From the IMG/VR virus record IMGVR_UViG_2700989487_000011: a stretch of 4,481 nucleotides of DNA; one strand, written 5' to 3'. Every line of letters starts with the position of its first letter. Position 1 is the stretch's first letter. Both the position numbers and the translations under genes were made by a program. Under the pieces are notes generated by a model. It worked only from the letters and a program-made list of their open reading frames with translations. It was not told the origin of the DNA and searched no databases. Source of the stretch: a virus. Taxonomy: Duplodnaviria > Heunggongvirae > Uroviricota > Caudoviricetes. Shown one piece after another: positions 1 to 4,481 of this stretch.

Positions 1-283
1 CGGAAGCCTGGCGAAGGATATCGTTACTGCGGCGCAGTTCACGATTTTCACGTTCCAGCTCTTTCAGACGCTGACGTTCAGCGGTGGTGAGTCCACCATC
101 ACCACTCCCGGTATCCCGCTCATGCTGACGAACCCACACACGCAGAGTCTCTGGTGTACAGCCAATCTTTGGGGCAATGGAACAAATTGCCGCCCATTGT
201 GAGTCATATTCGCCCTGACTTTCCAGAACCATACGAACTGCCCGTTGACGGACCTCGGGGGAAAAACGTGTATTTTTAGTCAT
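1..283 (-). CDS. IS3-family transposase OrfA, N-terminal 94 codons (partial, runs off the window)
   Basis: Hand translation from the ATG at 283-281: [94 protein letters not shown], no stop before position 1. RBS AGAGGT lies just upstream. Not in the ORF track because it is incomplete. Confidence 0.85.
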
Positions 284-299
284 CCTGTTTACCTCTTTC

Positions 300-337
300 T
301 CAGGGAGTTTAGTCTCCAGGATTCCCGGGGCGGTTCA
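300..337 (-). repeat. Terminal inverted repeat (left end) of the IS3-family element
   Basis: Element terminus TGAACCGCCCCGGG... at 337 downward, immediately upstream of the orfA RBS. The inner boundary of the repeat is approximate because the partner end is outside the window. Confidence 0.55.
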
Positions 338-348
338 ATTTGATTTGC

Positions 349-846
349 ATGACAGTTTCAGGCCTGATCTTTATTTTCCTTTTCTTCTGGTGGCGGGCAG
401 ATATTTACAGGGTCACGTTTCTTAATCAGAGTATATCCCACTATTACATTCTGTTTAGCATGGGAATAGCTTTTCTGTTATCTCTGTTTTGGGTTAAGAA
501 GGGGATAGTAAAACAAAGCGGCTGGAAGAGTCTGTCAGCATACCTTAAGGTTTATGCAGGGATGTGCATATTTGCTGGATTTTTTCTGATTATACCCCTT
601 ACAACACTAACTTATTTTTTGCCTGGAGAGACATCGTCTTATGTTGCACCGTATCGGTATACTTCCGGTAGTTCAAAAAGTTGTTCTGGAGCTGAGGTGG
701 ATGACCCCGATCTACATGAGAATATTCGCATTTGCTATCCGTATGGCAATTATGAGTACGATAATATTATCTATGTTGAAAAGAAAATTAATACATTAGG
801 TGCGGTAGTAACATATGCACAGACCGCGCGTGATGATACTGAATGA
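349..846 (+). CDS. Small integral membrane protein of unknown function (3 predicted TM helices, about 70-aa hydrophilic Cys-containing C-terminal domain); prophage accessory gene
   Basis: ORF track 340..846, but codon 340 is TTG; the first ATG is at 349 (MTVSGLIFIFLFFWW...). Hydrophobic stretches at about residues 4-15, 31-49 and 63-90, with a K-rich loop between helices 2 and 3. About 40% GC by hand count. No obvious Shine-Dalgarno; the IS end is 11 bp upstream. Confidence 0.6.
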   Translation: MTVSGLIFIFLFFWWRADIYRVTFLNQSISHYYILFSMGIAFLLSLFWVKKGIVKQSGWKSLSAYLKVYAGMCIFAGFFLIIPLTTLTYFLPGETSSYVAPYRYTSGSSKSCSGAEVDDPDLHENIRICYPYGNYEYDNIIYVEKKINTLGAVVTYAQTARDDTE

Positions 847-880
847 GATAGTATATAGCGGGCAAGTTTTAGTTAATTTA

Positions 881-915
881 TCGAGGTAATATAATTTACC
901 TCGACTCGTTTATTC
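881..915 (+). terminator. Candidate intrinsic terminator downstream of the membrane-protein ORF
   Basis: Perfect 9-bp inverted repeat TCGAGGTAA (881-889) / TTACCTCGA (896-904) with 6-nt loop TATAAT, followed by CTCGTTTATTCT. It sits 35 nt after the 846 stop. The stem is AT-rich and the U-tract imperfect. Confidence 0.3.
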
Positions 916-1056
916 TGGTATTAATATTTCGCTTTACGATCGATTTTTATCTGATGATATCATGCGGTTTTCATATACTGACTTACTGTCTTTTCTCCGT
1001 TAGCGATTTTCTCCTGCTCAGCGATGATTTTATCTTTGGCTTCTAGTTAATTTCGC

Positions 1057-1278
1057 TCACTTCGAACCTCTCTGTTTACTGATAAGTTCCAGATCCTCCT
1101 GGCAACTTGCACAAGTCCGACAACCCTGAACGGCCAGGCGTCTTCGCTCATCTATGGGATCGCCACACTCACAACAATGAGTGGCAGATATAGCCTGGTG
1201 GTTCAGGCGGCGCATTTTTATTGCTGTGTTGCGCTGTAATTCTTCAATTTCTGATGCTGAATCAATGATGTCTGCCAT
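1057..1278 (-). CDS. TraR/DksA-family C4 zinc-finger protein (RNA polymerase secondary-channel binder family; possibly a lambda Orf73-type homolog)
   Basis: 73-aa ORF with CxxC-x17-CxxC motif (CCECGDPIDERRRLAVQGCRTCASC), and a size and layout like F-plasmid TraR. The only SD-like sequence, GGAAG, directly abuts the ATG. Confidence 0.7.
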   Translation of the reverse strand: MADIIDSASEIEELQRNTAIKMRRLNHQAISATHCCECGDPIDERRRLAVQGCRTCASCQEDLELISKQRGSK

Positions 1279-1330
1279 CTTCCATTAATCCCTGAATTGT
1301 TGGTTAATACGCTTGAGGGTGAATGCGAAC

Positions 1331-1354
1331 AATAAAAAAGGAGCCTGTAGCTCC
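1331..1354 (-). terminator. Candidate Rho-independent terminator on the minus strand between the hypothetical ORF and the TraR-like gene
   Basis: Minus strand reads GGAGC-TACAG-GCTCC followed by TTTTTTATT (plus-strand A-run 1331-1339). GC-rich 5-bp stem, 5-nt loop, T6 tract, starting about 20 nt after the stop codon at 1377-1379. Confidence 0.4.
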
Positions 1355-1376
1355 CTGATGATTTTGCTTTTCATGC

Positions 1377-1658
1377 TCACCGTTCCTTAAAGACGCCGTT
1401 TAACATGCCGATCGCCAGGCTTAAATGAGTCGGTGTGAATCCCATCAGCGTTACCGTTTCGCGGTGCTTCTTCAGTACGCTACGGCAAATGTCATCGACG
1501 TTTTTATCCGGAAACTGCTGTCTGGCTTTTTTGATTTCAGAATTAGCCTGACGGGCAATACTGCGAAGGGCGTTTTCTTGCTGAGGTGTCATTGAACAAG
1601 TCCCATGTCGGCAAGCATAAGCACACAGAATATGAAGCCCGCTGCCAGAAAAATGCAT
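1377..1658 (-). CDS. Small hypothetical protein in the position of lambda orf61 but apparently not the same gene
   Basis: Open frame of 93 codons from the ATG at 1658. An alternative in-frame ATG at 1592 (MTPQQENALR..., 71 aa) has a weak GGGA upstream. No recognisable motif. Start codon uncertain. Confidence 0.5.
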   Translation of the reverse strand: MHFSGSGLHILCAYACRHGTCSMTPQQENALRSIARQANSEIKKARQQFPDKNVDDICRSVLKKHRETVTLMGFTPTHLSLAIGMLNGVFKER

Positions 1659-1668
1659 TCAGTGGTTG

Positions 1669-1860
1669 TCATACCAGGTCTCTCTCATCTGCTTCTGCTT
1701 TCGCCACCATCATTTCCAGCTTTTGCGAAAGGGATGTGGCTAACGTATGAAATTCTTCGTCTGTTTCTACTGGTATTGGCACAAACCTGACTCCAATTTG
1801 AGCAAGGCTATGTGCCATCTCAATACTCGTTCTTAACTCAACAGGAGATGCTTTGTGCAT
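1669..1860 (-). CDS. orf63: Lambda orf63-type small early protein
   Basis: 63-aa ORF with SD GGGAGG 4-5 nt upstream of the ATG at 1860. Its position and length match lambda orf63 immediately downstream of orf60a in the exo-distal direction. It overlaps orf60a by 28 nt. Confidence 0.7.
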   Translation of the reverse strand: MHKASPVELRTSIEMAHSLAQIGVRFVPIPVETDEEFHTLATSLSQKLEMMVAKAEADERDLV

Positions 1861-2015
1861 ATCGCCTCCCGTTTATTATTTATCTCCTCAGCCAGCCGCT
1901 GGGCTTTCAGCGGATTTCGGATAACAGAAAGGCCGGGAAATACCCAGCCTCGCTTCGTAACGGAGTAGACGAAAGTGATCGTGCCTACGCGGATATTATC
2001 GTGAGGATGCTTCAT
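1833..2015 (-). CDS. orf60a: Lambda orf60a-type small early protein
   Basis: ORF track gives 1833..2021 (MAMKHPH...). SD GGGGAG spacing favours the second ATG at 2015 ([11 protein letters not shown]..., 60 aa). That ATG overlaps the exo stop as tcat at 2012-2015 (ATGA coupling). Confidence 0.75.
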
Positions 2016-2692
2016 CGCCATTGCTCCCCAAATACAAAACCAATTTCAGCCAGTGCCTCGTCCATTTTTTCGATGAACTCCGGCACCATCTCGTCAAAAC
2101 CCGCCATGTACTTTTCATCCCGCTCAACCACGACATAATGCAGGCCTTCACGCTTCATACGCGGGTCATAGTTGGCAAAGTACCAGGCATCTTTTCGCGT
2201 CACCCACATGCTGTACTGCACCTGGGCCATGTAAGCCGACTTTATGGCCTCGAAACCACCGAGCCTGAACTTCATGAAATCCCGGGAGGTAAACGGGCAT
2301 TTCAGCTCAAGGCCGTTGCCGTCACTGCATAAACCATCGGGAGAGCAGGCGGTGCGCATACTTTCGTCGCGATAGATGATCGGGGATTCAGTAACATTCA
2401 CGCCGGAAGTGAATTCAAACAGGGTTCTGGCGTCGTTCTCGTACTGTTTTCCCCAGGCCAGCGCCTTAGCATTAACTTCCGGAGCCACACCGGTGCAAAC
2501 CTCAGCCAGCAGGGTGTGGAAGTAGGACATTTTCATGTCAGGCCACTTCTTTCCTGAGCGGGGCTTTGCTATCACGTTGTGAACTTCTGAAGCGGTGATG
2601 ACGCCGAGCCGTAATTTGTGCCATGCATCATCCCCCTGTTCGACAGCTCTCACGTCGATCCCGGTACGCTGCAGGATAATGTCCGGTGTCAT
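2012..2692 (-). CDS. exo: Lambda exonuclease (Red-alpha), 5'-3' dsDNA exonuclease
   Basis: 226-aa ORF ([37 protein letters not shown]...) recognised as lambda Exo. SD AAGGTGG upstream; its ATG overlaps the bet stop (ATGA). Confidence 0.95.
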
Positions 2693-3474
2693 GCTGCCAC
2701 CTTCTGCTCAGTGGCTTTCTGTTTCAGGAATCCAAGAGCTTTCACTGCTTCGGCCTGTGTCAGTTCTGACGATGCGCGAATGTCGCGGCGAAATATCTGG
2801 GAACAGAGCGGCAATAAGTCGTCATCCCATGTTTTATCCAGGGCGATTAGCAGAGTGTTAATCTCCTGCATGGTTTCATCGTTAACCGGAGTGATGTCGC
2901 GTTCCGGCTGGCGTTCTGCAGTGTATGCAGTATTTTCGACAATGCGCTCGGCTTCATCCTTGTCATAGATACCAGCAAATCCGAAGGCCAGACGGGCACA
3001 CTGAATCATGGCTTTATGCCGTAACATCCGTTTAGGATGCGACTGCCACGGCCCCGTGATTTCTCTGCCTTCGCGGGTTTTGAATGGTTCGCGGCGGCAT
3101 TCATCCATCCATTCGGTAACGCAGATCGGATGATTACGGTCCTTGCGGTAAATCCGGCATGTACAGGATTCATTGTCCTGCTCAAAGTCCATGCCATCAA
3201 ACTGCTGGTTTTCATTGATGATGCGGGACCAGCCATCAACGCCCACCACCGGAACGATGCCGTTCTGCTTATCAGGGAAGGCGTAAATTTCTTTCGTCCA
3301 CGGATTAAGGCCGTACTGGTTGGCGACGATCAACAATGCGATGAACTGCGCATCGCTGGCATCGCCTTTAAATGCCGTCTGGCGAAGAGTGGTGATCAGT
3401 TCCTGTGGGTCGACAGAATCCATGCCGACACGTTCAGCCAGCTTCCCTGCCAGCGTTGCGAGTGCTGTACTCAT
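2689..3474 (-). CDS. bet: Bet (Red-beta) single-strand annealing recombinase
   Basis: 261-aa ORF ([37 protein letters not shown]...) recognised as lambda Bet. SD GAGGT upstream of the ATG at 3474. Confidence 0.95.
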
Positions 3475-3479
3475 CCGTT

Positions 3480-3896
3480 TTATACCTCTGAATCAATATC
3501 AACCTGATGGTGAGCAATGGTTTCAACCATGTACCGGATGTGTTCTGCCATGCGCTCCTGAAACTCAACATCGTCATCAAACGCACGGGTAATGGCTTTT
3601 TTGCTGGCCCCGTGGCGTTGCAAATGACCGATGCATAGCGATTCAAACAGGTGCTGGGGCAGGCCTTTTTCCATGTCGTCTGCCAGTTCTGCCTCTTTCT
3701 CTTCACGGGCTATCTGCTGGTAGTGACGCGCCCAGCTCTGAGCCTCAAGACGATCCTGAATGTAATAAGCGTTCATGGCCGAACTCCTGAAATAGCTGTG
3801 AAAATATCGCCCGCGAAATGCCGGGCTGATTAGGAAAACAGGAAAGGGGGTTAGTGAATGCTTTTGCTTGATCTCAGTTTCAGTATTAATATCCAT
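3480..3896 (-). CDS. gam: Gam, RecBCD inhibitor (host-nuclease inhibitor)
   Basis: 138-aa ORF ([32 protein letters not shown]...[35 protein letters not shown]...) recognised as lambda Gam. Internal Met41 (MNAYYIQ) corresponds to the short GamS form. Lies 5 nt upstream of bet. Confidence 0.93.
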
Positions 3897-3994
3897 TTTT
3901 TATAAGCGTCGACGGCCTCACGAAACATCTTTTCATCGCCAATAAAAGTGGCGATAGTGAATTTAGTCTGGATAGCCATAATTGTTTGATCCAT
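3851..3994 (-). CDS. kil: Kil, host cell-division inhibitor (FtsZ antagonist)
   Basis: 47-aa [47 protein letters not shown], which is the C-terminal part of the 89-aa track ORF. Good SD CAGGAG about 9 nt upstream of the ATG at 3994. Overlaps the gam start by 46 nt. Confidence 0.8.
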
Positions 3995-4127
3995 TTTTTG
4001 GGACTCCTGGCTGATTAAGTATGTCGATAAGGCGTTTCCATCCGTCACGTAATTTACGGGTGATTCGTTCAAGTAAAGATTCGGAAGGGCAGCCAGCAAC
4101 AGGCCACCCTGCAATGGCATATTGCAT
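3963..4127 (-). CDS. cIII: CIII, FtsH (HflB) protease inhibitor that stabilises CII
   Basis: Hand translation from the ATG at 4127-4125 gives MQYAIAGWPVAGCPSE..., with stop TAA at 3965-3963 (54 codons). Strong SD AAGGAG upstream. Too short for the ORF track. Overlaps kil out of frame. Confidence 0.85.
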   Translation of the reverse strand: MQYAIAGWPVAGCPSESLLERITRKLRDGWKRLIDILNQPGVPKNGSNNYGYPD

Positions 4128-4199
4128 GGTGTGCTCCTTATTTATACATAACGAAAAACGCCTCGAGTGAAGCGTAATTGGTATGCGGTAACGCCGCGC

Positions 4200-4442
4200 T
4201 CAGGCGGCCTTGATAGTCATATCATCTGAATCAAATATTTCTGATGTATCGATATCGGTAATTCTTATTCCTTCACTACCATCCATTGGAGGCCATCCTT
4301 CCTGACCATTTCCATCATTCCAGTCGAACTCACACACAACACCATATGCATTTAGGTGATGCTGCCAACTTACTGATTTAGTGTATGATGGTGTTTTTGA
4401 GGTGCTCCAGTGGCTTCTGTTTCTATCAGCTGTCCCTCCTGT
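4200..4442 (-). CDS. ea10: Ea10-like protein, C-terminal portion only; no usable start in frame (disrupted or mosaic, possibly a pseudogene)
   Basis: Hand translation of the frame ending at stop TGA (4202-4200): ...SWQHHLNAYGVVCEFDWNDGNGQEGWPPMDGSEGIRITDIDTSEIFDSDDMTIKAA*, matching the lambda Ea10 C-terminus from memory. An in-frame TGA at 4445-4443 closes the frame. The only in-frame ATG is at 4286 and a GTG at 4337. Confidence 0.5.
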   Translation of the reverse strand, partial: TGGTADRNRSHWSTSKTPSYTKSVSWQHHLNAYGVVCEFDWNDGNGQEGWPPMDGSEGIRITDIDTSEIFDSDDMTIKAA

Positions 4443-4481
4443 TCAGCTACTGACGGGGTGGTGCGTAACGGCAAAAGCACT
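4370..4481 (-). CDS. 3' end of an unidentified ORF entering from beyond the right edge (different frame from the ea10 remnant)
   Basis: Hand translation of the alternative minus frame: VLLPLRTTPSVAEQEGQLIETEATGAPQKHHHTLNQ* with stop TAA at 4372-4370, open to the window edge. Product unknown and could be a chance open frame. Confidence 0.3.
   Translation of the reverse strand, partial: VLLPLRTTPSVAEQEGQLIETEATGAPQKHHHTLNQ

Follow-up and report, generated by a model that had tools for sequence, protein, structure and literature searches.

A broken ea10 gene at the end of a lambdoid-prophage contig is almost certainly a simple IS1 insertion

Why does ea10 appear to be broken in a 4,481-nt stretch of viral DNA (Caudoviricetes; IMG/VR record IMGVR_UViG_2700989487_000011; "the window" below means this whole stretch)? 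The frame that ends at the ea10 stop (4200) is closed upstream by an in-frame TGA at 4445-4443 and has its first ATG only at 4286, and a second frame comes in from the right edge of the window and ends at 4370. These coordinates, taken from a first-pass annotation that was made from the letters alone, are all correct. That annotation concluded that ea10 is disrupted and offered two causes: a frameshift or nonsense mutation that had turned the gene into a pseudogene, or a recombination joint at which another gene had replaced its 5' part. We find that the disruption is real and that there is a homology breakpoint upstream, but that neither of the two causes holds. Instead, ea10 is almost certainly split by a simple insertion of IS1 at nt 215-223 of the gene in a lambdoid prophage. 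Table 1 lists the features.

Table 1. Features of the window, with positions counted from its first letter (a dot marks a feature without a strand; L004 is a sibling assembly described in the text)
Feature	Position	Strand	Details
IS3-family element, end (337 nt)	1..337	.	Part of a 1310-bp element (L004 8680..9989)
HTH_Tnp_1 ORF	2..283	-	In the IS3-family element
Truncated ORF of a hypothetical gene	349..846		165 aa, ATG start
cIII	3963..4127	-	Intact; pL operon, next gene downstream of ea10; gene order shared with phage 434 and the ESDR8 prophage
cIII thermoregulator RNA	4082..4140	-	Intact; Rfam RF01804, 88.5 bits (gathering score 50), full model length
ea10 3' fragment	4200..4354	-	Gene nt 215-369: codons 73-122, the stop and 2 nt of Leu72
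Target-site duplication, left copy	4346..4354	.	9 bp, ATGCATTTA; on the gene strand TAAATGCAT, which is ea10 nt 215-223
IS1 (IS1A/IS1B type), first 127 nt	4355..4481	+	Contig stops inside
IS1 left terminal inverted repeat	4355..4377	+	GGTGATGCTGCCAACTTACTGAT; pairs with the right end in L004, GGTAATGACTCCAACTTATTGAT
"Second frame" ORF, 36 codons	4480..4370	-	Ends in TAA (4372-4370); reads MLLPLRTTPSVAEQEGQLIETEATGAPQKHHHTLNQ, ending ...LIETEATGAPQKHHHTLNQ
insA 5' end	4410..4481	+	GTG start; first 24 codons, VASVSISCPSCSATDGVVRNGKST
"In-frame TGA"	4443..4445	-	Inside IS1; stop of a 71-codon antisense IS1 ORF

The ea10 remnant and the sequence beside it

Over its whole length, the ea10 fragment aligns with the ea10 gene of phage 434 with no gaps and a single substitution (pairwise alignment). 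Its frame ends with a TGA at 4202-4200 and encodes the C-terminus ...LNAYGVVCEFDWNDGNGQEGWPPMDGSEGIRITDIDTSEIFDSDDMTIKAA. The 51-aa C-terminal fragment matches Pfam's DUF2528 (the Ea10 family, PF10800) at profile positions 59-104 of 104, with a score of 69.9 bits (the gathering score that serves as the cut-off is 22 bits) and E = 3.1e-19, which bears out the earlier description of an Ea10-like C-terminus without a start. The position of the fragment is also that of ea10: by synteny with phage 434 and the prophage of E. coli ESDR8, it lies in the pL operon, with cIII on one side and N-proximal genes on the other. There is no full-length ORF of about 122 codons that begins at a start codon of its own, as the window has only nt 215-369 of the gene; the start codon and the ribosome-binding site of ea10 are gone. 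(A GTG at 4337 opens a 45-aa ORF in the ea10 frame, and an exact-sequence look-up of this ORF found no record.) So, the remnant is a gene fragment that belongs to DUF2528 by sequence and synteny, and it is not a functional member of the family.

Similarity to phage ends at a single point. In a megablast comparison of window positions 3400..4481 to 50,697 phage records, 308 records matched, and in the best 15 of these 308 the coverage ends at query position 955, which is window position 4354 (the identity is 99.1-99.9% in the listed matches). Similarly, the alignment to phage 434 continues without gaps from the cIII-ea10 spacer through ...CATATGCATTTA at position 4354, and past 4354 there is no similarity. 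The first-pass annotation had suggested extending the window rightward and aligning it to ea10 at the nucleotide level, to distinguish a 1-2 bp indel from a homology breakpoint. This shows a homology breakpoint at 4354/4355 and no such indel.

What follows the breakpoint is the left end of IS1. At all 127 of their 127 nucleotides, positions 4355 to 4481 are identical to features that at least 5000 plasmid records annotate as "IS1-like element IS1A/IS1B family transposase". The terminal repeat of IS1 is canonically about 23 bp long, and the imperfect inverted repeats of this element, which start with GGTGATGCTGCC and GGTAATGACTCC, match at 21 of their first 30 positions (the right repeat is at L004 14752..14774). 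The 24 codons of insA are recognized by Pfam as Zn_ribbon_InsA (PF03811, E = 7.6e-13), and a gene is also called here in the assembly L007. The 9-bp sequence just before the breakpoint, ATGCATTTA, has a single occurrence in intact ea10. Thus, the window's own share of the insertion is the left repeat, 24 codons of insA, and one copy of the target duplication.

A frameshift or nonsense pseudogene, caused by a 1-2 bp indel or a point mutation, should show colinear homology on both sides of the lesion, with the upstream sequence still being ea10. In the window, homology stops at 4354 and no ea10 sequence comes after it. The appearance of an in-frame TGA and of a second open frame is all that speaks for this explanation. 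Given that there is no alignment gap in the fragment, that everything past the breakpoint is IS1 at 100% identity, and that the true 5' part of ea10 lies 768 bp away in L004 (see below), we consider its probability to be negligible. As for the TGA itself, we considered it as a nonsense mutation of ea10 and rejected it, because the site is inside IS1. The 71-codon antisense ORF that it terminates is called as a gene in L004 (14095..14310 on the minus strand, which corresponds to window positions 4443..4658).

The second frame also lies wholly within IS1, antisense to the left end of the element and to the start of insA, and we judge it to be a chance non-coding ORF. The first-pass annotation had seen in it the unrelated-looking C-terminus of another gene; a Pfam search with the peptide found no family at E ≤ 0.01. 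This matters for the idea of a mosaic or recombination joint, at which the 5' part of ea10 would have been swapped for a phage gene encoding ...LIETEATGAPQKHHHTLNQ. Lambdoid phages are mosaic, and the abrupt breakpoint at 4354/4355 would suit a joint of this kind. However, the far side of the breakpoint is the terminus of an insertion sequence rather than phage DNA, and the supposed incoming gene runs antisense to insA and yields a peptide without a family match. Also, a 9-bp duplication flanks the element and its precise excision restores ea10, as we describe next. A mosaic joint is therefore extremely unlikely.

The complete insertion in sibling assemblies

Exact look-up of the protein encoded by the 165-aa ORF near the left end of the window led to the assemblies L007 and L004 and to other sibling contigs. 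(The same kind of look-up with the sequence of a 168-aa ORF at the left edge, with a TTG start, found no record.) The window is identical to L007, which is JXVW01000214.1 from GCA_000948465.1 and has a total length of 4481 nt, so it is a whole draft contig. L004, a 1-Mb contig (UASG01000011.1 from GCA_900450275.1), is 100% identical to positions 1..4481 of the window, with no mismatch or gap and with both of the IS junctions included.

In L004, IS1 is complete (768 bp, 14007..14774), and the best plasmid copies listed match it at 99.7% identity. It encodes a 91-aa InsA (PF03811 and PF12759) and has the A6C frameshift motif at nt 307, and an InsAB' gene of 232 aa with the DDE_Tnp_IS1 domain (PF03400) is called. 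The target duplication ATGCATTTA is present on both sides of the element. The right copy comes directly after the right end of IS1, so that the order at this junction is the IS1 end ...AAGTTGGAGTCATTACC, then ATGCATTTA, and then AGTCGCTTGAAATTGC..., where the sequence resumes that of phage 434 ea10. What lies beyond IS1 on this side is the 5' 223 nt of the gene. In other words, the 5' part of the gene was not replaced: it is intact 768 bp further on, past the full IS1. Against the DUF2528 profile, one half of the split gene covers positions 1-57 and the other covers 59-104.

If IS1 and one copy of the repeat are removed in silico, the result is a 122-aa Ea10 in which one residue differs from the Ea10 of phage 434. 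E. coli ESDR8 (L002) has the 1200-nt product of this excision exactly, so an ea10 allele with an empty site exists in nature, and L004 and L002 are colinear apart from two IS elements. The sole difference from phage 434 Ea10 is G110E, a change from GGA to GAA in codon 110 (window position 4240). This substitution is older than the insertion of IS1, because the intact ESDR8 allele, which exactly matches the excision product, has the same residue.

Every feature of IS1 that we could test is found here, partly in the window and partly in L004: the inverted repeats, the near-identity to known copies, insA and insB' with a -1 frameshift at the A6C motif, the length of 768 bp, and the 9-bp duplication. 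The element thus shares with the 768-bp IS1 of Enterobacteriaceae its repeats, its frameshift motif, the zinc ribbon and helix-turn-helix of InsA, and the DDE_Tnp_IS1 domain, and we see no substantive difference between the known copies and the one in L004.

Could the junction be an artifact? Since the window comes from a short-read draft and stops 127 nt into a multicopy repeat, it could conceivably be a chimera of a prophage contig and a pile of IS1 reads, with no real IS1 in ea10. But L004, L007, and L006 (E. coli O145:NM PARC449; PMC4563881), which were deposited separately, all share this junction exactly, and the 1-Mb contig spans the whole of IS1 and includes the matching 9-bp duplication. 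We give a chimera practically no chance.

Elsewhere, we did not find the junction. Searches with its exact 36-nt sequence gave no match in species-representative genomes, viral contigs, or metagenome contigs. It is also missing from the 5426 complete E. coli genomes that were compared, and among the best 15 phage records listed, no match continues past 4354. The allele is thus rare, and two sibling assemblies supply its context.

The right flank of IS1 is beyond the edge of the window, which raises the possibility that in the window's own genome an IS1-mediated deletion, inversion, or other rearrangement has occurred and that IS1 is not followed by the 5' part of ea10. Such an event has a parallel: in the prophage of M159-1 (L003), IS1 lies at another position in ea10, and beyond it come a DUF3800 pseudogene and lysis genes. 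Nevertheless, L004 matches all 4481 nt of the window at 100%, including the independent IS3-family junction at 337/338, and in L004 the insertion is simple and has its target duplication, so we think that a rearrangement is highly unlikely. From the 100% identity to L004, the window's own genome probably has the same right-hand junction. If the insertion is simple there as well, the right end of IS1 would join ATGCATTTAAGTCGCTTG and would continue onward into ATGCATTTAAGTCGCTTGAAATTGC.

Origin and consequences of the insertion

We propose that the 768-bp IS1 transposed into ea10, in the leftward early operon, pL, of a lambda/434-like prophage. The host is an E. coli of O145 type, in which the prophage is integrated beside ybhC. 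IS1 transposes by making a staggered 9-bp cut that results in a direct duplication. In this case, the InsAB' transposase would have acted on the terminal repeats, and the repair of a staggered 9-bp cut in the target would have duplicated ATGCATTTA. The target covers codons 72-75 (nt 215-223) of a gene that is 62% A+T, and the direction of insA is opposite to that of ea10 and of pL transcription.

The anatomy of the split gene suggests a loss of function: Ea10 is presumably inactivated, because its 3' part has no start codon or ribosome-binding site. The 5' half is predicted to encode residues 1-74 of Ea10 and one Trp before it reaches a TAA in the right end of IS1. In phages lambda and 434, ea10 is at the same site, directly upstream of cIII in the pL operon; in contrast to those genes, it is split here at nt 215-223 and the window has only the last 155 nt. 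The phage 434 record labels the protein "ssDNA binding protein". The gene itself is accessory and dispensable.

Effects on the rest of the operon are also plausible. Insertions of IS1 classically have polar effects on the genes downstream, and here IS1 may exert some polarity on cIII-kil-gam-bet-exo. Antitermination by N can override such polarity and might relieve it in this prophage; an N gene (107 aa, PF11438) is called upstream in L004.

IS1 has entered ea10 more than once. Among the 5426 complete E. coli genomes, there are five full-coverage matches in which IS1 is at other positions in ea10, with three distinct spacings. These are in the prophages of M159-1, M171-1, PEC148, 2023CK-01509, and SW07164, which have the same gene and the same element family as the window but different insertion points. 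M159-1 (L003 2601..3578) retains 225 nt of ea10, as compared to 155 nt here, and the DNA on its far side is unrelated, a sign of an IS1-associated deletion or rearrangement, unlike the simple insertion in L004. NCBI annotates analogous remnants beside IS1 as partial genes ("DUF2528 family protein, incomplete"). One could ask if insertion of IS1 into ea10 is recurrent and selected rather than a form of neutral decay. If so, the effect could be that less of the toxic kil and gam is expressed from a cryptic prophage whose pL operon is interrupted just upstream of cIII-kil-gam, while bet and exo are retained. We think that selection is very unlikely. Chance suffices to explain the repeated insertions, because there are about 10 matching places per genome (the median; these are mostly IS1 copies) and the target is AT-rich.

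An insertion of this sort is already known and is ordinary, and nothing about it departs from known biology. Its biological weight is small: it is one more IS1 insertion in a decaying, IS-ridden lambdoid prophage.

The end of the contig and the surrounding prophage

The window is bounded on both sides by multicopy IS repeats, with its right end 127 nt into IS1 and its left end within an IS3-family element. The draft assembly stopped inside the multicopy IS1, so the window shows only the cIII-proximal junction. A stop at exactly 127 nt into the element possibly reflects the break of a de Bruijn assembly with k = 127. (The draft contig of L006 ends exactly at the right end of IS1, and this likewise looks like a repeat-induced break.) A practical lesson is that when a broken gene with an unrelated upstream frame is seen at the end of a draft contig, the first thing to test for is the terminus of an insertion sequence, because assemblers halt inside such repeats and because antisense ORFs within them can mimic foreign genes.

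At the other end of the window, the IS3-family element is a simple insertion into a gene for a 200-aa hypothetical protein, next to xis and int. It leaves the truncated ORF at 349..846, and the gene is intact in E. coli ESDR8 (L002 2407..3009). A second copy of the element in L004 (18765..20074) is 99.85% identical and in the same orientation, and it is located just after a truncated Phage_rep_O gene (88 aa, 18538..18804). The prophage as a whole looks defective, because the IS3-family copies interrupt the 200-aa gene and adjoin the truncated replication gene O. The two direct copies bracket about 8.8 kb that includes the recombination and immunity genes, in an arrangement like that of a composite transposon. 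There is also a third copy at L004 1..896, which is partial, diverged (about 95% identity), and inverted.

Finally, the kil frame is annotated inconsistently. It contains an 89-codon ORF at 3851..4120 on the minus strand that is called as an 89-aa "Lambda_Kil" in L005, while other assemblies call a 47-aa kil at 3851..3994, which overlaps cIII. The discrepancy is in the annotated start site, and there is no sequence difference in the window.
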